In this document: one piece after another, positions 4,183-59,940 of the stretch | How the letters are laid out: each line of letters starts with the position of its first letter | Numbering within the stretch: position 1 is the stretch's first letter | NCBI GenBank assembly: GCA_030390025.1 | Contig: CM059432.1 | Span: 26,104,001-26,168,000 of the forward strand | DNA from: Squalus acanthias | Lineage: Eukaryota | Direction: 5' to 3' | DNA: 64,000 bases | Notes under the pieces: model-generated | The model's input: the letters and a program-made list of their open reading frames with translations, nothing else | Told to the model about the DNA's origin: nothing | Database searches by the model: none | Program-made: the position numbers and the translations under genes

Positions 4183-5458
4183 AGACAGGCTGGTGGAATG
4201 GGCGGACACGTGGCAGATGAAATTTAACGCAGAAAAGTGCAAAGTGATACATTTTTGTAGGAAGACCGAGGAGAGGCAATATAAACTAAAGGTACAACTC
4301 TAAAGGGTTTGCATGAACAGAGAGACTTGGGGGTATATGTGCACAAATTGTTGAAGGTGGCAGGCAGGTTGAGATAGAGGTTAAAAAAAGCATATGGGAT
4401 CCTGAGTTTCATAATTAGAGGCATAGGGCTGGATTTTACTTACCGAGACGAGTTGGGGGCGGGACTGCTGCCTTCTGGGTTCTAGTCCCGCCCCCCAGGG
4501 ACGTCCGACGCACAGACGCTATTTTCCCCTGATTGGTCTTGTTAAGCCCGCCCTGCTGACTAATTAAGGGAAAGCCGGTGTCTGATGACGTCAGTTGATT
4601 ACGCTTCATCTGCCGGTTTTCTTAAAAGGGACATGAAACATTTATTTTTGACAGATGATTTGACAGTGTTTGACAGCATTGAGGTGCTGTCAAACACTGA
4701 CAATCACTGTACAAAGGTGAGCCCTTGCACCTAGGCTCTCCAATGACTCTCTCCTTCGGATAAAACAGATGGCAGCTGCAGGTGAGGGTACAGAAGCGAT
4801 CTGTCACGTCTCCCAATGAGGTGAGGCCACACAAACACTTCAAAGCTTGTCACCTACAGAAAAATCTAAACACATTAAAAATGACTTTCCCAACATTTCC
4901 TTACCTCTTATACTCACCAGTGTCCCATTGCATCCTTCACACCACTCCTGCAGCTGTCATCTATACACAAACATTACAACAGACCCACAGCATGCCTCAC
5001 TTATCCTGGCGGGGTTTACCGACGTCGGGAAGCCCGCAGCAGAAGTTGCAAAATGGGAAAAAGCCTCTTAACTGCCTGTTAACAGGCAGTTAAGTGGCTA
5101 TAATCCTCTTCCTGCCACTAGGAGTCGGGTCCCTGCGCAAATTGGGGACCTGACCCCCGGGAAGATTGGTTGGAGGCGGGTTGGGAGCGGGTTGGGGACA
5201 CGCTTCCATTCTTATTGATTTTCCCAGCAGTCCCGCCTCCAACCCTGCCTCCTCAGGGCTGGTAAAATCCAGCCTATAGAGTACAAAAGCAAGGAAGTTA
5301 TGAACCACCTTTATAAAATACTGGTTCGGCCTCAACTGGAGTATTGTGTCCAATTCTGGGCACCGCACTTTAGGAAGGATGTGACGGCCTTAGAGAGGGT
5401 GCAGAAAAGATTTACAAGAATGGTTCCAGGGATGAGGAACTTCAGTTATGTGGGTAGA
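4183..5458 (+). mobile_element. CR1 LINE RT C-terminal fragment, split by a MITE
   Basis: Encodes 'LYKILVRPQLEYCVQFWAPH'. Removing the MITE restores ggcATAgagtacaaaagc. Confidence 0.85.
4426..5275 (-). mobile_element. Harbinger-type MITE (family A, reverse orientation)
   Basis: TIR gggctggattttac / gtaaaatccagcct. 3-bp TSD ATA at 4423-4425 and 5276-5278. Confidence 0.88.
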
Positions 5459-19805: not shown

Positions 19806-21787
19806 TTCTAGAATTGTACTCTACATCCCTGCAGTTTATGTACCACACAAACAATCCCCAGTGATGTAACTGCACCGGTGCCTATTATCATACAGTTTCT
19901 CTGCACAACGGCCTCTTAGCTTAGGATATCCAGCTGCCAGGCTTCATTCAACAGTACCGACTTAACAGTATCAACACAACAGTTCAAGTACTTTTAATAA
20001 AGAGGGCTTTTTGAACTCTACAATTATATAAAATTAATTTTATTCTAACTGGTTTTAAAAACAAATAATTAGCAACTCATTAAGGACAAGCAGACTCGAT
20101 GGGCCGAATGGCCTCCTTCTGTGCTGTACTATTCTATGAATTTATTCAAAAAAACACATCAGTTCAATTTACACAGTGAACTTCTAACAGCACATAATGA
20201 GAAAGCCTCCCATTTTAAAAGGGGCAATCAAAACTACTTTCTGTTAGCAGATGAAACTGGTCAGCACAGAGATGCTATCAAAACATGTTAAAAAAGAATG
20301 CTCGTGCACTAGACCTGTCATAGAGTCATAGTCATACAGCACAGAAAGAGGCCCTTCGGCCTATCGTGTCCGCGCCGGCCATCAAGCCCCATCTATTCTA
20401 ATCCCAATTTCCAGCACTTGGTCCGTAGCCTTGTATGCTATGGCATTTCAAGTGCTCATCTAAATGCTTCTTGAATGTTGTGAGGGTTCCTGCCTCTACC
20501 ACCCTTTCAGGCAGTGAGTTCCAGATACCAACCACCCTCTGGGTGAAAAAGTTTTTCTCCAATCCCCTCTAAACTTCCTGCCCCTTACCGTGAATCTATG
20601 CCCCCTGGTTATTGACCCCTCTACTAAGGGAAAAGTTCCTTTCTATCTACCCTATCTATGCCCCTCATAATTTTGTACACCTCAATCAGGTCCCCGCTCA
20701 GCCTTCTCTGCTCTAAGGAAAACAACCCCAGCCTGTCCAGTCTCTCTTCATAGCTGAAGCACTCCAGCCCAGGTAACATCCTGGTGAATCTCCTCTGCAC
20801 CCTCTCCAATGCAATCACATCCTTCCTATAGTGTGGCGACCAGAACTGCACACAGTATTCCAGCTGTGGCCTAACTAGCATTTTGTACAGCTCCATCATA
20901 ACCTCCCTGCTCTTATATTCTATGCCTCGGCTAATGAAGGCAAGTATCCCATATGCCTTTTTAACCACCTTATCTACCTGTCCTGCTGCCTTCAGGGATC
21001 TATGTACATGCACACCAAGGTCCCTCTGATCCTCTGTCCTTCCTAGGGTCCTACCATTCATTGTGTATTCCCTTGCCTTGTTAGTCCTCCCAAAATGCAT
21101 CACCTCACACATTTCAGGGTTAAATTCCATGTGCCACTGTTCTGCCCATCTGACCAACCCGTCTATATCGTCCTGTAGCCTGAGGCTTCCCTCCTCGCTA
21201 TTTACCACTCCACCAATTTTCGTGTCATCTGCGAATTTACTGATCATACCTCTTACATTCATATCTAAATCATTAATGTACACTACAAACAGAAAAGGAC
21301 CCAGCACCGATCCCTGCGGCACACCACTGGACACAGGCTTCCAGTCACAAAAACAACCTTCGACCATCATCCTCTGCCTCCTGCCACTAAGCCAATTTTG
21401 GATCCAATGTGCCAAATTGCCCTGGATCCCATGGGCTCTTACCTTCTTGACCAGTCTCCCATGCGGGACTTTGTCAAAAGCCTTACTGAAGTCCATGTAG
21501 ACTACATCAACTGCACTACCCTCATCCACACACCTAGTCACCCCCTCGAAAAATTCAATCAAATTGGTTAGACATGATCTCCCCCTGACAAAGCCATGCT
21601 GACTATCCTGGATTAATCCTTGCCTGTCCAAGTGGAGACTATTTCTGTCCTCAGAATTTTTTCCAATAATTTCCCTACCACTGATGTTAGGCTCACTGGC
21701 CTGTAATTCCCTGGTTTATCCCTACTACCCTTCTTGAATAATGGTACTACGTTAGCTGTCCTCCAGTCCTCTGGCACCTCCCCTATG

Positions 21788-22056
21788 ATGCGGAGAAGCC
21801 GGTGTTGGACTGGGGTGGACAAAATTGAGAGGTCGCACAACACCAGGTTATAGTCCAACAGTTTTATTTTAAATCACAAGCTTTCGGAGTTAAAACTCCT
21901 TCGTCGGGTGAAGTGAGGAGATACAGAATCGTCAAATGCTTTGACGATTCTGTATCTCCTCACTTCACCCGACGAAGGAGTTTTAACTCCGAAAGCTTGT
22001 GATTTAAAATAAAACTGTCGGACTATAACCTGGTGTTGTGCGACCTCTCAATTTTG
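21788..22056. mobile_element. Penelope-derived non-coding hairpin insertion carrying two hammerhead-like motifs
   Basis: 12-bp TSD acctcccctatg (21776-21787, 22057-22068). Arms 21820-21936 and 21940-22056. Same terminal sequence as the GIY-YIG-linked insert at 54340. Confidence 0.85.
21965..22002 (+). ncRNA. Minimal type I hammerhead ribozyme-like motif (core variant CCGACGA); mirror copy at 21874-21911 on the minus strand
   Basis: TCAC CCGACGA A GGAG ttttaa CTCC GAAA GCTT GTGA: stem I TCAC/GTGA, stem II GGAG/CTCC, palindromic AAGCTT at helix III. Confidence 0.65.
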
Positions 22057-24901
22057 ACCTCCCCTATGGCCAGAGAGGTTCTGAAAATTTGTGTCAGAGC
22101 CCCTGCAATCTCCTCCCTTGCCTCACACAGCAGCCTGGGATACATCTCGTCTGGGCCTGGGGATTTATCCACTTTTAAGCCCGCTAAAACCGCTAGTACC
22201 TCCTCCCTCTCAATACTAATTTGTTCAAGTATATCACAATCCCCCTGCCTGATTTCTATGCCTACATCGTCCTTCTCCATAGTGAACAGAGATGCAAAAT
22301 ATTAATTTAAAACCTCACCCACATCTTCCGGCTCTACACACAGATTGCCACTTTGGTCCCTAATGGGCCCTACTCTTTCCCTGGTTATCCTCTTGCCCTT
22401 AATATACTTATAAAACACCTTGGGATTTTCCTTTATTTTGCCCGCCAGTGTTTTTTCATGTCCCCTCTTCGCTCTCCTAATTTCTTTTTTAAGTACCCCC
22501 CTGCACTTTCTATACTCCTCTAGGGCTTCCACTGTTTTTAGTCCTTTGTATCTGCCAAAAGCCTCCCTTTTTTTCCTAATCCATTCTTGTATATCCCTTG
22601 ACAGCCAGGGTTCCCTGGGCTTGTTGGTCCCACACTTGACCTTTACGGGAACATGTTGGCATTGTACTCTCTCCATTTCCTTTCTGAAAGACTCCCACTG
22701 CTCTGATGTGGATTTTCCTACAAGTAGCTGATCCTAGTCCACTTTGGCCAGATCCTGCCTTTTCATATTAAAACCGGCCTTCCCCCAATTTAGAACCTTT
22801 ATTTCCAGTCCATCTTTGTCCTTTTCCATGACTACCTTAAATCTCACCGAATTATGGTCACAGTCAACAAAATGCTCTCCTACTGACACTTCTACCACTT
22901 GCCCGGCTACATTCCCTAGAATTAGGTCCAGTACCGCCCCCTCTCTTGTAGGACTTTCTACATGCTGGCTCAATAAGCTGTCCTGGATGCACTTTAAGAA
23001 TTCCGCACCCTCTAACCCTTTCACACTCTGACTATCCCCTACTATTATTACCCTATTATTTCTACACTTCTCTGAGATTTGCCTACATATCTGTTCCTCT
23101 ATCTCCCCCTGACTGTTTGGGGGCCTATAGTACACTCCCAGCAAAGTGCTTGCCCCCTTTTTGTTTTTAAGTTCTACCCATATGGCCTCATTAGAGGAAC
23201 CTGCTAAGATAGCATCCCTCCTTACAGCAGTAATTGACTCCTTGATTAATATTGCGACACCCCCTCCTCTTTTACAACCCCCTCAAGATTCCATACCCCG
23301 GAATATTGAGCTGCCAGTCCTACCCCTCCCTGAACCATGACTCTGTGATCGCAACAATATCATACTCCCATGTGTTCATCAACACCTTCAATTCATCTGC
23401 CTTACTCGCAAGACTCCTTGCATTAAAATAAATGCCATCAAGCCTTGCCATACTCCCTTGTGCCGTTACATATTTGCTCTGCCTTCCAGGCTGTCTTGTT
23501 TTTTCCTCTATATTTGGCTGTGCATCACCCCTACTATAGCTCCCCTCTGTATCCCATCCCCCTGCCAAGTTAGTTTAAACCCCCCCCCCCCAACAGCACT
23601 AGCAAACCTCCCCGCAAGGATGTTGGTCCCGTTCCGGTTCAGGTGCAACCCGTCCCACCTTCCCCAGAAGCAGACCCAATGATCCAGGAAACTAAAGTCC
23701 TCCCTTCTGCACCAACTCTTTAGCCACGCATTCATCTGCTCTATCTTCCTATTCCTATACTCACTAGCACGTGGCACCGGGAGTAATCCAGAGATTACAA
23801 CCTTTGAGGTCCTGCTTTTTAATCTGCTACCTAGCTCCCTAAATTCTTGTTGCAGGACCTCATCCCTCTTTCTACCCATGTCGTTGGTACCAATGTGAAC
23901 CACGACCTCTGACTGTTCGCCCTCCCCCTTCAGAATTCCCTGCAGCCGTTCAGTGACATCCAGATTAGAGCCATCTGAGACACACGCAGCAATTGTACAA
24001 TACTGCACTAGTTTCCCTCACTCTTGTATCTGTTAGAGTAAAGAGGTAACATACCCAAAGTTAAAAATTAGGGAGTTGGAACTAAAAAGTGAAGTCAATA
24101 GTTTTTTTTCAGCCTAAGAGCAATAAAGGATGTCTCTTAAAGGAGGCAAATGGGTTGAGGAAGAGTTTCTGGAGAGAAACAATTGAAGGATTTAGTTAGA
24201 AGTTGTGTAGATTTATTAAAAAGGAGACACGTTTGTTGAATGGAAAAGGAAAAGTTTTGTGGCTGACCCGAGTTCCACAGGTCTGGCCCTGTACAGGTGG
24301 GACATCTGGAAGTACTGAGGCAAAACATGGGTAAATTTCAATCACAAAACCAATTTAACATATTCACCCTTTATAATTGGGTAAGACATAAAAGCCCCTC
24401 TATGTACTACAATAACTACTTTAGGGATGTAACCATCCAGTCCACAAGTGCTCTCTGTGTGGATTGGTCTATAAATATTAGATTCTTGAGTTAGTTTGAT
24501 AGGATCTGCAAATCTGCTGACTGTCTCCATTTGTGAATACTGAAGTCATAGAATCATGGAAATTTACGGCTTAGAAGGAGGCCATTCGGCCCATCGTGTC
24601 TTTGCTGGAAAGGCACAGTGGAGAATTCATTTAGACACGCTTGCCATTTTCAGATCCTCCATATACAGTACTATTCTATTTCTTAAAAGGATCCATCTGG
24701 TTTAACATTGTTTGCTTTTCTGACAGCATTCTAATAATAAAATGATCTTTAACTGACTTTTCCTAGGGCTCCCAAGTCCTTGTTATGTTTTGATACCTAG
24801 TTTAAAAAAAAATGAAGCCATTTTTGAACTCCATATTAATATCATGCCATTATTACTCAAAATTATACTAATCACAAATCTAGAAACAGAAATTTACTTA
24901 C

Positions 24902-25085
24902 GTATTCACCATATGTAGTGTCTTGTACTGGGGGTGGTGGAGGTCTGTAACCTTGTGCTCCTCTTGCTCTTGGTGCTGGGACGCCACGTCCTCTAGCTCC
25001 AGGACCTCGACCTGGAGGTGCTCCTCTGGGGACTGGCCCTGCTCGTGGAACTGCAGATGTGGGGGGAGGAACTCCACCACGGCCT
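24902..25085 (-). CDS. KHDRBS3: KHDRBS3 exon, RG/proline-rich: (R)[61 protein letters not shown]
   Basis: 184 bp, phase 2/0. TTTACCAG acceptor, GTAAGT donor. Ends in [13 protein letters not shown] as in KHDRBS3. Confidence 0.92.
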
Positions 25086-27096: not shown

Positions 27097-28156
27097 CATA
27101 GAGTCATAGGGCTCAATTTTCACCGGCCCGTGGAGGCGGGAGTGGTGTGAAAATAGCAGATTCGGGGGTCCCGAACCCATCCCGCCCCCAACCTGCCTCC
27201 ATGCCAGTTTCCCAGGAGGCGGGTACCCGACCTGTGCTGGGACCCGCCTCCCCGAGGCAGGAAGGGGATTAGTGCCAATAAACTGCCTGTTAACAGGTAG
27301 TTAACAGGCAGTTTTTTGCCTAATCCCTATTTTTAGCCCTGAAGTGTGGGCTTTCCGACAGGGCTGAACCATGCCGATTTAGCGAGGCGGACCGTCGGTA
27401 TGGAGGGCTTGGAGGGGTCGAGATGTCCGGTGTGCAGGTGAGTGATGGGTGCATGAGTGCAGAGGTAAGTGTGTTTGGTGTGTGTAAAGTGTTTTAAGAA
27501 CTTTTACTTACCTTAACTTTGTCCTGCAGGCTAGCTTCCTTAAGGTGTCGGGAGTCCCTCACATCCACGGCACAGAAAGCAGAATGGCTGCGGAGCTGTC
27601 AAAAGCTGCAGTCTCTGCTTTCTGTGCTGGATTGATTTCTAACTGAGTCTAAGTACAGGGACTCAAGTTAGAAATCATATTGTCAGTGTTTGACAGCTTC
27701 ACAGAGCTGTCAAACGCTGAAATTTCATCTGTCAAAAGCTCTTGACAGATGAAATTTCAATGGCTGACGTCACCTGTATCCAAGGGACCCTTGATTGGCC
27801 TGCTAAGCCCGCCCGGCGTGCTTAACAAGGTCAATCAAGGGAAAATACAGTGGGTTGGCCACAAGTTGATGGAGGCGGGACTACAACCCAAAAGTGGGAG
27901 TCCCGCCTCCATCATGTCCCCATTGACAAAATCCAGCCCATAGAGTTATACAGCACAGAAAGAGGCCCTTCGGCCCATCGTGTCCGCGCCGGCCATCAAG
28001 CCCTGTCAATTCTAATCCCATTTTCCAGCACTTGGTCCGTAGCCTTGTATGCTATGGCATTTCAAGTGCTCATCTAAATGCTTCTTGAATGTTGTGAGGG
28101 CTCCTGCCTCTACCACCCTTTCAGGCAGTGAGTTCCAGATTCCAACCACCCTCTGG
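27097..28156 (-). mobile_element. Short 5'-truncated CR1 3' end (same subfamily as the 20318 copy), split by a MITE
   Basis: 27943-28156 is nearly identical to about 20330-20542. Confidence 0.85.
27109..27939 (+). mobile_element. Harbinger-type MITE (family A)
   Basis: Ends gggctcaatttt / aaaatccagccc. TSD ATA at 27106-27108 and 27940-27942. Confidence 0.88.
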
Positions 28157-43321: not shown

Positions 43322-43438
43322 CTTTGCTTTGTCCCGCATGGATCCTTTACCCAAAATGGACATTTTTGTCAGCGTTTCTTCCTGTAACCTCTTCAAAGAA
43401 TTACCACGTGGGCCCAACAGTTTACCGACAAAGTTAAA
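43322..43438 (-). CDS. KHDRBS3: KHDRBS3 (SLM2/T-STAR) internal exon, start of KH domain: [39 protein letters not shown]
   Basis: 117 bp, phase 0/0. AG acceptor at 43439-43440, GTAAG donor at 43317-43321. STAR-family KH GxxG loop (GPRG). The 'EETLTKMS' motif matches KHDRBS3 as I recall it, rather than KHDRBS1/2 (EETGAK). Confidence 0.93.
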
Positions 43439-50517: not shown

Positions 50518-51198
50518 GGCCCGTATTTTGCGACCATAAGGGCCGTACAAGTTCCAGGTTTTCACGCGCGAAATCTTCTTGACAGACCATAGCCATCCCT
50601 GGGAAAAGGGCCTCCGCGGGCGGAGAGTTGGGATATTTGTCCAGCTTCTGCCCAGCGAATGCCCGTGAAATTCTTACGCCTGGTAAAAGCAGGTGTAAGG
50701 CCTACTTTTACCAGCGTAAGAGTTTAAATTAATATAAAAATATTTTTTTTTCAATTATTTAAACATTAAAACAATAAAATAAGTTAAGGTTATTTTTAGC
50801 CCCTTTAAAACATTTAAATTTATTTTTCAAAAAATTAAATTTTTGTTTTAAATGTTTAAAATTATATTTTAATTAATTTTAAATGTGATTTTTTTAAATC
50901 TTATGTGTCATGTTAATGTGTTTTTTATGTGATCCCCATTCATGCTTATGGGGATTCCGTACGTACGGAATCACCATAAGCATAAATGGGGATCCCCCTT
51001 CTTTCATTGGTTGGGCCAGCCCAAGTGACCCCAGGGGTGCTTGCGAACCGCCTGCGCCCCTGGGATACGTGGGCCCCTACGCATAGAGGCCCAGGAGCAC
51101 GCGTCTCCGTGGGCCCAGGACCATCAGGTAGGTTCGTAGATTTTTTGCCGTTTGGAGGCATCCGCCCGCAGGAAGCTTCAGACCACAAATTCAAGCCC
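50518..51198. mobile_element. Harbinger-type MITE with AT-rich core
   Basis: Imperfect TIR ggcccgtattttgcgacc / gaccacaaattcaagccc. TSD ATT at 50515-50517 and 51199-51201. Confidence 0.65.
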
Positions 51199-53540: not shown

Positions 53541-54339
53541 GAATAGCATGCTGTTAAAGACTTCAAAATGCTAGTTGCACCAAATTAATACCATGTGCAA
53601 ATACAAATAAAGCACAGACCACTTAAGGTGGTATATTCATCAGCCATCAAAAGAATATGTTTTATAAATCACTTTAGGCACAGATTTCAACTTCAGTGCT
53701 GTATTATATATTTTGTCTGAGTGCATTACCAGGTAACATTCAAAACTTTCAAAATCAGCATAATTCTTGATCTAAGTCACATCAAGTGAGAAGAGAGAGC
53801 AGGGGGAGGCAATGGTTAAGCATAGGATACAGCATCTTCCTGCAGAAGAAGGAAAAGTCAGAGGGGAAGTCATGAAATGTGGCCAACACTTGCTATTCCA
53901 TCAGTAATTGAGCACAGTTCTTTTAATACGTGCAATTCACAACAACAAAAAAAGAACCTTCATCAACATATAGCATCTTATCACAGCCTCAGGATATCAC
54001 AAAATGCTTCTCAATGATGAATAATGTGTGAAATGCTGTTATTGGTATGTAGGTAAATGAAGGATGGAGGCAGGGCAAGAAAGAGACAGACAGATAGAGT
54101 GAAGAGAGAGAAAGAAAATGATAAAGCAAAAGAAAAATCTAATTCAACAACAACAACTTGTATTTATATAGCGCCATTAACGTAGTAAAACGTCCCAAGG
54201 TGCTTCACAGGAGCACTGTGACCAAGCTGTCACCTGCCTTCATTTCTCCTTATATGGCTCGGTGTCAAATTTTTTGTCTTATAATAACAAGATAGATGAG
54301 TTGACGACACAAATAGAAATAAATGGGTATGATCTGATA

Positions 54340-54898
54340 AAATTGAGAGGTCGCACAACACCAGGTTATAGTCCAACAGTTTTATTTGAAATCACAAGCT
54401 TTCGGAGCTATCGATTTGCTCCTTCCTCAGGTGAAGTAAATTAGATACAGAATCTCCAAAGCATATATAGATGGAAAACAAAGCATGTGTATTTTACAAT
54501 TGCAGACCAATAAATTAAATCATCCTGACTATCTGCCGAGGTGTGATAAAGTTAATTAAGTCAGCCAGGAAGGTACCACATCAAAGACATAGCAAGATAC
54601 AACTGAGACAATGAGGTGTAGTCGCAGGGGTTCTAACGTGTCAAAAGCTGCCGTCTGTATGTAAAACGAAAAGCTTTAACATTTTTTTACTTTTTTACTG
54701 GGAAAATTTTTACTTTTTTACTGGGAATCACATCTAACGACTCGAGTCCGGATCACGTCATGTATCGTGACATAAACCCAAGATCCCGATTGAGACCGTC
54801 TTCATGAGTGCGGAACTTGGCTATCAGTTTCTGCTCGATGATTTTGCATTGTCGTGTGTTTCTAAGGTTGCCTTGGCATCTCTAAGGCATCTCCGCAT
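54340..54898 (-). mobile_element. Penelope-like 3' end (GIY-YIG C-terminus, UTR and hammerhead) with inverted terminal piece
   Basis: 12-bp TSD tatgatctgata (54328-54339, 54899-54910). The minus strand near 54755-54875 reads QGNLRNTRQCKIIEQKLIAKFRTHEDGLNRDLGFMSRY. Confidence 0.82.
54392..54434 (-). ncRNA. Minimal type I hammerhead ribozyme motif with intact core
   Basis: TCAC CTGAGGA A GGAGC aaatcgata GCTCC GAAA GCTT GTGA. Confidence 0.75.
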
Positions 54899-55367
54899 TA
54901 TGATCTGATAGCCATTAGAGAGACGTGGTTGCAAGGTGACCAAGGCTGGGAACTGAATATTCAGGGGTATTTGACATTTCGGAAGGATAGGCAGAAAGGA
55001 AAAGGAGGTGGGGTAGCTCTGTTAATAAAGGATGAGATCAGTGCAGTGGTGAGAAATTATATTGGCTCAGAAGATCAAGATGTAGAATCAGTTTGGGTGG
55101 AGATAAGAAACAGTAAGGGAAAGAAGTCACTGGCGAGAGTAGTCTATGGACCCCCTAACAGTAGCTACACTGTAGGACAGAGTATAAATCAAGAAATAAT
55201 AGTGGCTTGTAAGAAAGGTACTGAGATAATCATGGGTGATTTTAATCTTCATATAGATTGGACAAATCAAATTGGCAAGGGTAGCTTTGAGGACGAGTTC
55301 ATAGAATGTATTCGGGATGGTTTCTTAGAACAATACGTTGTGGAACCAACCAGGGAGAAGGCTATTT

Positions 55368-55489
55368 TGAGGAAGGAGCAATCGATAGCTCCGAAAGCTT
55401 GTGATTTCAAATAAAACTGTTGGACTATAACCTGGTGTTGTGCGACCTCTCAATTTTGTCCACCCCAGTCCAACACCGGCATCTCCGCA
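55368..55489 (+). mobile_element. Very short Penelope terminal insert starting inside the hammerhead core
   Basis: tgaggaaggagc...gctccgaaagcttgtga...ggcatctccgca. No TSD; a small target deletion is apparent. Confidence 0.78.
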
Positions 55490-55521
55490 ATGTGTAATGA
55501 GACAGGATTAATTAATGATCT

Positions 55522-56319: not shown

Positions 56320-59300
56320 TTATCGGGGTAAGGCAGCAGCAACCAACTTCCTGGCACTATGGGTGGTTCTGCTGCACAGGAGGGGAGGAAAAAGAGCAGG
56401 AGAGCTATCGTGATAGGGGATCCTTTGTAAGGGGAATAGATAGGCGTTTCTGCGGCCGCAAACGAGACTCCAGGATGGTATGTTGCCTCCCTGGTGCAAG
56501 GGTCAAGGATGTCTCGGAGCGGCTGCAGGGCATTCTGGAGGGGGAGGGTGAACAGCCAGTTGTCGTGGTGCATATAGGTACCAACGATATAGGTAAAACA
56601 CGGGGTGCGGTCCTAAAGGCTGAATAAAGGGAGTTAGGAGGTAAATTAAAAAATAGGACCTCAAAAGGTAGTAATCTCAGGACTGCTACCAGTGCCACGT
56701 AATAGTCAGAGTAGAAATAGAAGGATATTTCAGAAGAATGGTGCAAGGGGGAGGGATTCAAATTCCTGGGACATTGGAACCGGTTCTGGGGGAGGTGGGA
56801 CCAGTACAAACTGGACGGTTTGCACCTGGGCAGGACCGGGACCGATGTCCTAGGGGGAGTGTTTGCTAGTGCTGTTGGGGAGGGTTTAAACTAAAATGGC
56901 CGGGGGTTGGGAACCTGTGCAGGGAGACAGAGGAAAGGAAAGCAAGGATAGAAGAAAAAGACAGGAAGTAGAAAAGCAAAAGTGGAAATCAGAGAATTCA
57001 AGGGTGTAAATCAAACATGGCCACAGTAAACAATAATTCTAAATGGTCTAAGAGTGTTAAAAAGACAAGCCTGAAGGCTTTGTGTCTTAATGCGAGGAGG
57101 AATCGTAATAAGGTGGATGAATTAGCTGTGCAAATAGAGGTAAACGGATATGATATAATTGGGCTTACGGAGACTTGGCTCCAAGGTGACCAAGGCTGGG
57201 AATTCAACATCCAGGGGTGTTCAATATTCAGGAAGGACAGGCAAAAAGGAAAAGGAGGTGGTGTAGCATTGCTGGTTAAAGATGAGATTAACACATTAGT
57301 AAGGAAGGATATTAGCTCTGATGATGTGGAATCTGTATGGGTAGAGCTGAGAAATACCATGGGGCAGAAAACGTTAGTGGGAGTTGTATACAGACCCCCT
57401 AAACAGGAAATTAGAGACGCGTGCAATAAGGGCACAGCAGTTATCGTGGGTGACTTTAATCTACATATAGATTGGGCTAACCAAATTAGTAACAATACTG
57501 TGGAGGAGGAATTCCTAGCGTATATACGGGATGATTTCCTGGACCAATATGTCGAGGAACCAACTAGAGATCAGGCCATCGTAGACTGGGTATTATGTAA
57601 TGAGAAAGGATTAATGAGCAACCTTGTTGTGCGTGGCCCCTTGGGGAGGAGCGATCATAATATGATAGAATTCTTCATTAAGATGGAGAGTGAAGTAGTT
57701 GACTCAGAGACTAGGGTCCTGAATTTAAATAAAGGAAACTACGATGGTATGAGGCGCGAGTTGGCTAGGATGGATTGGGGAACTTTTCTTAAAGGGTTGA
57801 CGGTAGATAGGCAGTGGCAAACATTTAAAGATCACCTGGATGAACTACAGAATTTGTTCATCCCTGTTTGGCATAAAAATAAAACAAAAAAGGTGACTCA
57901 ACCGTGGCTAACAAGGGAAATTAGGGATAGCATAAGATCCAAGGAGAGCACATATAAATTGGCCAGAAAAAGCAGCAAACCTGAGGATTGGGAGCAGTTT
58001 AGGATTCAGCAAAGGAGGACAAAGGGATTAATTAAGAGGGGGAAAATAGAATATGAGAGTAAGCTTGCAGTGAACATAAAAACTGACTGTAAAAGCTTCT
58101 ATAGATATGTGAAGAGAAAAAGATTGGTGAAGTCAAGCGTAGGTCCCTTGCAGTCAGAATCAGGGGAATTTAGAATGGGGAACAAAGAAATGGCAAACCA
58201 AATAAATACATACTTTGGTTCTGTCTTCACAAAGGAGGACACAAATAACCTCCCAGAGATGTCGGGGAACATAGAGTCTAATGAGAGGGAGGAACTGAAT
58301 GAAATCAGTATTTGTAGGGAAATGGTGTTAGGGAAATTGACGGGATTGAAGGCCGATAAATCCCCAGGGCCTGATAATCTACATCCTAGGGTACTTAAGG
58401 AAGTGGCCCTAGAAATAGTAGATGCATTGCTGGTCATCTTCCAAAATTCTATGAACTCTGGAACAGTTCCCATGGATTGGAGGGTGGCTAATGTAACCCC
58501 ACTATTTAATAAAGATGGTAGAGAGAAAACGGGGAATTATAGACCGGTAAGCCTGACATCGGTAGTGGGGAAAATGCTAGAGTCCATTATAAAAGATGTA
58601 ATAGCAGAGCACTTGGAAAACAGTGACAGGATCGGACAAAGTCAACATGGATTTACAAATGGTAAATTATGCATGACTAATCTACTGGAAATATTTGAGG
58701 ATGTAACTGGTAGAATAGATAAGAGGGAACCAGTGGATGTGGTGTATTTGGACTTTCAGAAGGCTTTCGATAAGCTCCCGCATAAGAGATTAGCGTGCAA
58801 AGTTAAAGCACATGGGATTGGGGGTAAGGTACTGACTTGGATAGAAAACTGGTTGGCAGACAGGAAGCAAAGAGTTGGAATAAACGGGTCTTTTTCCGAG
58901 TGGCAGGCAGTGACTAGTGGGGTACCACAGGGATCGGTCCTTGGACCCCAGTTATTCACTATATATATTAATGATCGAGACAAGGGAACTAGATGTAATA
59001 TCTCCAAGTTTGCAGACGACACAAAGCTGGGTGGGTGTGTGTGCTGTGAGGAGGATGCAGAGAAACTCCAGTATGATTTGGACAGGTTGGGTGATTGGGC
59101 AGATGCATGGCAGATGCAGTATAATGTGGATAAATGCGAGGTTATCCACTTTGGTGGCAAAAACATGAAGGCAGATTATTATCTGAACGGCAATAGATTG
59201 GGAAAAGGGGAAGTGCAACGAGACCTGGGTGTCCTTGTGCACCAGTCGCTGAAGGTAAGCATGCAGGTGCAGCAGCCGGTTAAGAAGGCAAATGGTATGT

Positions 59301-59940
59301 TGGCCTTCATAGCGAGAGGATTCGAGTACAGGAGCAAGGAGGTCTTGCTGCAGTTGTACAGGGTTTTGGTGAGGCCACACCTTGAGTATTGTGTGCCGTT
59401 TTGGTCGCCTTATCTGAGGAAGGATGTTCTTGCTATGGAGAGAGTGCAGCGAAGATTCACCAGACTGATATCTGGGATGGCAGGAATGACGTATGAAGAG
59501 AGATTGGGTCGATTGGGCTTGTATTCGCTAGAGTTTAGAAGAATGAGAGGGGATCTCATTGAAACTTATAAAATTCTAACAGGACTAGACAGACTAGATG
59601 CAGGAAGGATGTTCCCGATGGCGGCGGAGTCCAGAACCAGGGGTCACAGTCTAAGGGCAAGGGGTAAGCCATTTAGGACTGAGATGAGGAGGAATTTCTT
59701 TACCCAGAGAGTGGTGAACCTGTGGAATTCTCTACCACAGAAGACAGTTGAGTCCAATTCATTAAATATATTCAAGAAGGAGTTAGATATATTTCTTAAG
59801 GCTAAGGGGATCAAGGAATATGGGGAGAAAGCAGGGACAGGGTACTGAATTTGGATGATCAGCCATGATCGCATTGAATGGCGGAGCAGGCTCAAGGGGA
59901 CGAATGGCCTATCCTGCTCCTATCTTCTATGTTTCTATGT
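56320..59940 (+). mobile_element. CR1 LINE (disrupted partial ORF1 esterase plus complete ORF2) inserted into the Penelope element
   Basis: HIGTND esterase motif, 943-aa ORF2, tail ctatgtttctatgt. Penelope sequence resumes immediately after it. Confidence 0.93.
57017..59848 (+). CDS. CR1 ORF2: AP-endonuclease plus reverse transcriptase, open over 943 aa
   Basis: ETW, GDFN, SDH endonuclease motifs; QHGF, DFQKAFD, GVPQGSVLGP, FADD RT motifs. Confidence 0.9.
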   Translation: MATVNNNSKWSKSVKKTSLKALCLNARRNRNKVDELAVQIEVNGYDIIGLTETWLQGDQGWEFNIQGCSIFRKDRQKGKGGGVALLVKDEINTLVRKDISSDDVESVWVELRNTMGQKTLVGVVYRPPKQEIRDACNKGTAVIVGDFNLHIDWANQISNNTVEEEFLAYIRDDFLDQYVEEPTRDQAIVDWVLCNEKGLMSNLVVRGPLGRSDHNMIEFFIKMESEVVDSETRVLNLNKGNYDGMRRELARMDWGTFLKGLTVDRQWQTFKDHLDELQNLFIPVWHKNKTKKVTQPWLTREIRDSIRSKESTYKLARKSSKPEDWEQFRIQQRRTKGLIKRGKIEYESKLAVNIKTDCKSFYRYVKRKRLVKSSVGPLQSESGEFRMGNKEMANQINTYFGSVFTKEDTNNLPEMSGNIESNEREELNEISICREMVLGKLTGLKADKSPGPDNLHPRVLKEVALEIVDALLVIFQNSMNSGTVPMDWRVANVTPLFNKDGREKTGNYRPVSLTSVVGKMLESIIKDVIAEHLENSDRIGQSQHGFTNGKLCMTNLLEIFEDVTGRIDKREPVDVVYLDFQKAFDKLPHKRLACKVKAHGIGGKVLTWIENWLADRKQRVGINGSFSEWQAVTSGVPQGSVLGPQLFTIYINDRDKGTRCNISKFADDTKLGGCVCCEEDAEKLQYDLDRLGDWADAWQMQYNVDKCEVIHFGGKNMKADYYLNGNRLGKGEVQRDLGVLVHQSLKVSMQVQQPVKKANGMLAFIARGFEYRSKEVLLQLYRVLVRPHLEYCVPFWSPYLRKDVLAMERVQRRFTRLISGMAGMTYEERLGRLGLYSLEFRRMRGDLIETYKILTGLDRLDAGRMFPMAAESRTRGHSLRARGKPFRTEMRRNFFTQRVVNLWNSLPQKTVESNSLNIFKKELDIFLKAKGIKEYGEKAGTGY

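Follow-up and report, generated by a model that had tools for sequence, protein, structure and literature searches.

By its sequence, the 269-bp hairpin at positions 21788 to 22056 of the window (the whole stretch of 64,000 nucleotides of Squalus acanthias DNA that was analysed) is a dead-end insertion that derives from a young Penelope-like element (PLE) and is truncated in both of its arms, and this identity is far surer than the mechanism that produced it. In the mechanism that we favor, with a probability of roughly 0.7, two 5'-truncated copies of the 3' end of the element would have been placed head to head by priming from both target strands. The window locus is an ordinary one among hundreds of truncated PLE copies, and the rules followed by the family matter more than this particular member. 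The rules for the target site and for the element ends are well supported by held-out counts. A target site shared with sister copies, together with the strict pairing of ends, likely records how PLEs insert.

The window insertion and its surroundings

An earlier note on this DNA had described an insert of 269 bp between exact 12-bp TSD copies, and direct re-reading of the sequence bore out both the coordinates and the counts. The features of the insertion and its surroundings are as follows, in window coordinates.

20624..24017, minus strand: host CR1-type LINE, with an esterase ORF1 piece, endonuclease and RT; its ORF2 is interrupted by the insertion
21769..21775, plus strand: CTCTGGC, left half of the palindromic target, with the conserved TG at 21772-21773; exact reverse complement of 22069-22075
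21776-21787, plus strand: left TSD copy ACCTCCCCTATG, exact over 12 bp; its last 3 nt (ATG) are the microhomology next to the element start codon
21788..21819, minus strand: PLE tail, the segment from the pLTR end to the ORF start codon in full-length units; private substitution at 21797
21820..21936, minus strand: tailed arm, the final 117 nt of the pLTR (element positions -117 to -1)
21874..21911, minus strand: minimal type I hammerhead motif, mirror of 21965-22002, sense in KHDRBS3 pre-mRNA
21937..22056, plus strand: tail-less arm, the final 120 nt of the pLTR (-120 to -1), native TGC included; private substitution at 22019
21960..21966, plus strand: initiator-like TCACTTC, a predicted start site; its A is at 21962, element position -95
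21965..22002, plus strand: minimal type I hammerhead motif, with a predicted cut between 21998 and 21999
22057-22068, plus strand: right TSD copy ACCTCCCCTATG, an exact match to the left copy
22069..22075, plus strand: GCCAGAG, right half of the palindromic target, with the conserved CA at 22071-22072
24902..25085, minus strand: presumed KHDRBS3 exon, the nearest upstream of the hairpin; its donor opens the hairpin-bearing intron, with the hairpin 2.8 kb downstream

The 117-bp inverted repeat with a single mismatch that had been described is present, with arms at 21820-21936 and 21940-22056, a differing pair at 21857/22019 and TGC between the arms. The hairpin folds at -242.6 kcal/mol (z = -35.9), a stability equalled by none of 100 shuffles. 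Two parts of the insert are now read differently. The segment that had been called a 32-nt leader is the PLE tail in reverse-complement orientation, as full-length units show: in tandem units the sequence that follows the arm is the reverse complement of this segment and runs into the start codon. The TGC that had been called a 3-nt loop is native right-arm sequence, so that the right arm is 120 nt long. Because the last 3 nt of the left TSD also match the element, the left boundary is ambiguous by 3 nt. The window copy and one sister copy (L004) differ at 2 of 269 positions, which indicates that the window insertion is very young.

The host sequence is indeed a CR1 element, as had been proposed. 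It is a CR1-type LINE on the minus strand with an RT (PF00078) and a GDSL esterase, the endonuclease falling under the Pfam cut-off, and the insertion point lies in ORF2, just upstream of the RT core. In contigs of three of four public runs position 21775 is joined directly to 22057; these contigs are short and CR1 flanks are multicopy, and the joins therefore indicate that other CR1 copies hold the target site once. The same CR1 site was struck independently at three other loci (L013, L089 and L118), and a different CR1 site is the location of a cluster of 10 of 40 insertions. The window also holds an apparently intact LINE ORF2 (56972-59848, plus strand) that is open over 958 aa and includes endonuclease and RT, and short near-perfect palindromes unrelated to the PLE arm at 50931-50994, 27718-27759, 5062-5099 and 27265-27327. 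A 39-nt inverted pair (20090-20128 / 20335-20373), 87% complementary and 206 nt apart, probably represents the ends of a common shark repeat.

The surrounding gene is KHDRBS3, on the minus strand, since the exon at 43325-43438 (minus strand) encodes 38 of 38 residues identical to T-STAR in PDB. Pfam searches for the N- and C-terminal exons of KHDRBS3 gave matches on other contigs alone, and these exons were located by translation. We take the exon at 24902-25085 and the one after it, a tyrosine-rich exon about 11 kb outside the window (L263), to belong to KHDRBS3 on the basis of their translations and of sequence motifs. Given the position of the hairpin in the intron, a long stem would be expected in KHDRBS3 pre-mRNA. 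The many near-perfect intronic hairpins of this kind are a possible, predicted source of double-stranded RNA in shark transcripts.

The parent element and its hammerhead motif

One of two alternatives in the earlier note, an inverted and truncated Penelope insertion, finds support in the arms, in the tail and in the RT and GIY-YIG-like continuation of longer copies. The window arm has 43 matches at 97-100% identity (40 of 716 candidates were scored), and a 43-nt motif within it has 371 exact matches genome-wide, compared with 2462 for a sister subfamily. Upstream of the arm, longer copies go on into an ORF that encodes RT and a GIY-YIG-like domain. Sister subfamilies contain tandem head-to-tail units of 3138 bp with an open ORF of 892 aa, and these tandem units form the pLTRs; no tandem source carrying the exact motif of the window was found. 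Such 3138-bp head-to-tail arrays (L220, L221 and L219; G000:C2:211.21-211.22 Mb and C1:117.17 Mb) have open 892-aa ORFs of identical length and are candidate active sources; one intact ORF spans 4081-6759 of L220. In the L219 and L221 arrays the outer end is tail-less.

The RT of the 892-aa ORF matches PF00078 with E 2.7e-08. PF01541 is reached on ORF fragments at E 3e-04 and 6e-04, just under the cut-off, with no match on the full protein, and it is carried by homologues of the ORF. The closest named proteins are from sharks, at 80-94% identity. Read by eye, the ORF contains GLKF, DKG, YIDD, C-X4-C-X2-C, a VVY...YIG variant of GIY-YIG and a CCHH pattern. PMC8557442 gives a CX2-5CxxC linker for Neptune and Nematis and not for Penelope/Poseidon; a linker of this form precedes the GIY-YIG domain in the shark protein (CHGKLCKTC in P0122), as in Neptune, and the absence of such a linker that would mark Penelope/Poseidon is not observed. 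By its linker and by the motifs read by eye, we would classify the parent PLE as Neptune-type; a Poseidon-type label, used previously, was dropped when the linker was found. The element has the further properties of an EN+ PLE, namely a single ORF with RT and C-terminal GIY-YIG and a hammerhead motif in the pLTR, and its insertion unit has an inverted 5'-truncated copy, a 30-40-bp tail at one end and a TSD.

The subfamilies that exist side by side have an almost identical ORF and are told apart chiefly by hammerhead loop II, of 5-11 nt, and by U or C at core position 4; the lineage with U4C has expanded to several hundred copies. A second PLE insertion in the window (54328-54910) belongs to a sister subfamily with the core CTGAGGA and consists of a long inverted tail-less arm and a short tail piece. 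Its 12-bp TSD, TATGATCTGATA, lies inside TG-N16-CA, and L028 and L064 have independent insertions at this CR1 site. A third PLE piece (55371-55490), located in a LINE endonuclease fragment, consists of one tailed arm; inspection by eye showed no TSD.

Each arm of the window hairpin was said to carry a hammerhead motif. The motif does read as described at 21965-22002 (plus strand), with its mirror at 21874-21911 (minus strand), but this arrangement means one motif per strand; the associated claim that a transcript would include a sense motif stands, with one motif per transcript in either direction. The motif comprises helix I (TCAC/GTGA), the core CCGACGA, an extra A, helix II (GGAG/CTCC), GAAA, a palindromic GC and UU. 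It has helices I and II, the extra base after A9 and the palindromic helix III of the minimal type I class, and it departs from the canonical core C3 U4 G5 A6 N7 G8 A9 by U4C at 21970. U4C is found throughout the subfamily of the window, and sister subfamilies keep U4. Among 35 distinct hammerhead variants helix II is mostly kept, loop II varies from 5 to 11 nt and compensatory changes are few. The isolated 43-nt motif folds into helices I and II at -9.6 kcal/mol, and a search of Rfam returned no hammerhead at E up to 10, with chance miRNA-like stem matches alone. U4C is described as a natural hammerhead variant with much lower activity in vitro (PMC3088659), and minimal motifs are described as cleaving weakly, probably as dimers (PMC4209133).

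In transcripts of either direction the antisense arm is made first, and for the fold of the host-sense hairpin a probability of about 2e-15 was computed for the first base pair of helix II. Since U4 is replaced by C, the antisense arm comes first and helix II hardly pairs in the hairpin, hammerhead activity at the window locus appears unlikely, and the motif, a passenger of the pLTR, is predicted to be locked in the stem.

Ends, target sites and fold-back points across the family

To what extent does the window insertion resemble its relatives? A script with a tail threshold of +19 classified 93 of 101 candidate head-to-head pairs as one tailed and one tail-less end. The other 8 had stopped at an older-subfamily difference; by eye, 6 of these are also tailed plus tail-less, and 2 were mis-paired with a neighbor and were dropped. 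All 99 true pairs therefore have one tailed and one tail-less end, with no tailed-tailed pair, in a sample that is non-random (short hairpins were sought and the first contigs favored, with 9 of the 40 loci of the third set unresolved) and in which one tailed end is resolved only to +19. The TSD is exact in 84 of 93 pairs and measures 12-14 bp in 75 of these 84. The outer ends vary copy by copy, from +26 to +47 on the tail side and from -13 to +3 on the tail-less side. Single-arm copies are also numerous, and two of them (L082 and L118) keep a 12-13-nt inverted scrap of the tail.

The target sites share a spaced palindrome. In the first set, TG-N16/17-CA centred on the TSD occurs at 27 of 30 distinct sites, compared with 3.1% of random positions, and each of the other spacings from N10 to N23 occurs at 0-4 of the 30. 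With the motif fixed beforehand, a held-out sister subfamily gave 21/24 (14/16 for new distinct sites; background 2.6%) and a third set gave 23/28 (9/11 for new distinct sites). Pooled, 49 of 56 distinct sites have the motif against a background of about 2.5%, and 7 of 56 lack it in its strict form. The pooled half-site is (C/A)TG(G/T)C, with the edge of the TSD mostly 2 nt inside the conserved dinucleotide. The motif is less frequent in two weaker sets, occurring in 3 of the 6 older pairs and in 8 of the 12 copies with one arm; background in the host LINE is 2.4%. In the literature that was searched we found no report of a spaced palindromic target, an obligate pairing of ends or a primer microhomology for any PLE, and the available part of PMC12910113 holds nothing on Penelope targets. 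The novelty of the target motif is provisional, the search having covered freely accessible papers.

Target and element also share microhomology at both ends. Its mean is 1.88 nt on the tail side and 1.74 nt on the tail-less side, compared with 0.45 and 0.70 nt in shuffles, and the observed means were never reached in 2000 of these; repeated CR1 targets are included in this test. The window copy has 3 nt on the tail side and 0 nt on the tail-less side. The two arms of an insertion agree in subfamily: the subfamily loop is common to both arms in all 37 distinct insertions found via one arm (40 rows, with 3 duplicates), and in 4 of these a single core transition separates the arms. Activity of the subfamilies at different times could account for the absence of mixed-subfamily arms. 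In 45 pairs the longer arm is the tailed one in 8 and the tail-less one in 15, with 22 near equal, and the fold-back is symmetric in 7 of 27 longer insertions.

Where the TSD is exact, head-to-head insertions measure between 207 and 5164 bp, and two tighter hairpin cores have 71 and 505 matches. A hand count of 23 head-to-head pairs, from the first 100 matches listed, found gaps of at most 10 nt in 8, of 11-62 nt in 7 and of more than 100 nt in 8. One locus (L003) has 749 nt extra between its arms, and another (L014) has an internal jump. The second alternative in the earlier note was a hairpin family with a shared fold-back point. Instead, fold-back points are spread over about 3 kb, and the check that it had suggested, a genome-wide count of copies with the same fold-back point, found the window junction once among 17 comparable loci. 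The 31 resolved short copies have 29 distinct junctions, which argues that the short hairpins are separate events.

The tight class folds at about -92 to -98, around the predicted initiator A at -95, values at -98 being lower bounds for about 9 loci. This A lies in TCACTTC, which resembles the initiator (Inr) consensus, and sits 31 nt downstream of a TATA-like box that the truncated window copy lacks. Many fold-backs stop at the predicted transcription start. Examined for a cap-derived G, arms that end at -95 do so with G in 17 cases and A in 7, where by construction just these letters are possible, many of them from the partner arm. One raw-read RNA run contained 0 reads on the element. The window arms end at -117 and -120, that is 22-25 nt upstream of the predicted start, so that run-off from a promoter transcript would be insufficient and the window copy would need a read-through RNA.

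Proposed mechanism of insertion and comparison with known systems

The mechanism that we favor may be set out as a series of steps, all read from finished insertions. The element protein, probably a dimer, would bind (C/A)TG-N16/17-CA(G/T) and introduce one nick per strand, two bases inward of the conserved dinucleotide, so that 3' overhangs of 12-13 nt remain. The RNA at the end of the tail, beside the start codon, would then pair over 1-3 nt with one of these 3' ends, and the second 3' end would pair about 35-45 nt farther upstream, probably with that same RNA. Both cDNAs would be extended toward the 5' end of the RNA, stop (at -117 and -120 in the window copy) and be end-joined head to head, and filling of the overhangs would yield the TSD. 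Failure of the second priming would give single-arm copies with TSDs. A more specific version, which in our judgement is about as apt to be wrong as right, holds that a dimeric RT-GIY-YIG protein reads the spaced palindrome, breaks the target with a stagger of 12-13 nt and, with one subunit at each target end, makes two copies of a single RNA from two fixed starts; the mini-hairpins would then be run-off products that map the 5' end of the transcript. If this is true, the inverted repeats, the one-sided tail and the TSD, which have been without a mechanism since Penelope was first described, all follow from one rule.

A different route to a hairpin would be fold-back self-priming. A single target-primed cDNA, or else an antisense template, would fold over at a short palindrome and be copied from its own end, and the second nick would do no more than resolve the intermediate and trim the tail. 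This scheme has already been proposed in print (PMC3846280), and several features of the shark copies are in keeping with it: palindromes and overlaps of 1-10 nt are frequent at junctions, near symmetry is seen in 22 of 45 pairs and the arms never mix subfamilies. On the other hand, the tail-less arm is the longer one in 15 of 45 pairs; such an arm cannot be a copy of the tailed arm, nor can the tail be copied from a tail-less arm. Since the longer arm may be of either kind, one folded-back cDNA cannot account for all of the insertions. Both target ends show more microhomology to the RNA than shuffles do, the window junction lacks a clear overlap, and we consider self-priming an unlikely origin for the window hairpin.

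We regard it as very improbable that the hairpins are a non-autonomous family, MITE-like or retrozyme-like, that moves as a unit. Hairpins of 210-290 bp with TSDs do number in the hundreds, and a few junction strings recur, one of them three times among 31, but the uniqueness of the window junction and the diversity of junctions among short copies, described above, speak against it, as do the variable outer ends, the continuum of lengths up to 5164 bp and the lack of tandem hairpins. The copies do not share the length, ends and internal junction of a MITE-like family. We give equally little weight to a long inverted insertion that was later shortened by a central deletion, or to an artefact of assembly. 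Long palindromes are unstable, and no public contig spans the whole insert; against this may be set the exact TSD and target motif, the private substitution in each arm and the existence of hundreds of similar hairpins, whose fold-back points peak at the predicted start. The least probable reading, which we hardly credit at all, is a hairpin with a host role as a double-stranded stem or ribozyme on KHDRBS3 pre-mRNA. The hairpin is intronic, lies 2.8 kb from the donor and would form a 117-bp stem, but it is very recent, and its U4C core occurs as one motif per transcript, buried in the stem. Priming from both target strands remains our preferred explanation.

Priming from both strands has a counterpart in L1 twin priming, where both target nicks prime cDNA and an inversion arises inside the TSD, as proposed here for the shark PLE. 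The cDNAs of L1 are made from neighboring segments of the RNA, whereas both shark cDNAs would copy the same 3' region, from starts about 35-45 nt apart. Among PLEs, the Anolis protein (Poseidon, PAc) nicks and extends both target strands in vitro and is predicted to be a dimer; two internal RT start sites bound the tail, and the hammerhead is dispensable for insertion (PMC11167929). According to the same source, PAc prefers AT-rich DNA and ATT, whereas the shark PLE uses TG-N16/17-CA; PAc initiates without homology to the cut DNA, whereas the shark PLE has 1-3 nt of microhomology; and the PAc ORF starts inside the hammerhead, whereas the shark ORF starts after the tail. In this sole in vitro PLE system the target is defined, in the available text, no further than AT richness (PMC11167929), and the PLE targets described so far in the parts of the literature at hand are AT-rich DNA (PMC11167929) or microsatellites (PMC8557442). 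The shark PLE shares with Neptune the C-terminal GIY-YIG, the CX2-5CxxC linker and CCHH; PMC8557442 proposes that the Neptune linker mediates a microsatellite bias, whereas the shark target is a spaced palindrome in non-repetitive DNA.

The hammerhead motif resembles the minimal motifs of metazoan PLEs, as given in PMC4209133, in its short helix I, the extra base between 9 and 10.1, G10.1-C11.1, the palindromic 15.2-16.2 and the variable loop II; the subfamily of the window differs in U4C and in a U at position 17. Non-LTR retrozymes (bioRxiv 10.64898/2026.07.22.740005) are likewise non-coding, pLTR-derived and hammerhead-bearing. They form head-to-tail arrays with at least 2 sense motifs, whereas the window holds one head-to-head pair with one sense motif per strand, and the head-to-tail repeats with at least 2 sense hammerheads that define retrozymes are not seen.

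The origin of the inverted repeats and of the one-sided tail of PLEs is named an open question in PMC8557442 and PMC3846280. With a palindromic target, predicted nicks, two start sites and intact 892-aa ORFs, the question of PLE insertion should be testable with a short synthetic substrate. Head-to-head inverted pLTRs with a 30-40-bp tail and a TSD are known from Adineta Pen2a (PMC3846280), from a general scheme (PMC8557442) and from Penelope of D. virilis (PMC2377424). The EN+ PLE insertions described there are like those of the shark in that the tail reaches up to or into the ORF start, the TSD measures about 9-14 bp, TATA and Inr-like motifs lie in the pLTR and full-length units occur in tandem. 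Compared with these complex insertions, the window copy holds just the last 117-120 nt of each arm. Where these papers place the tail at one end as "optional" or "often", the shark family has it at exactly one end in 99 of 99 pairs. The inverted pLTR with tail and TSD was known previously; the symmetric target site and the strict pairing of two different ends have apparently not been described before.
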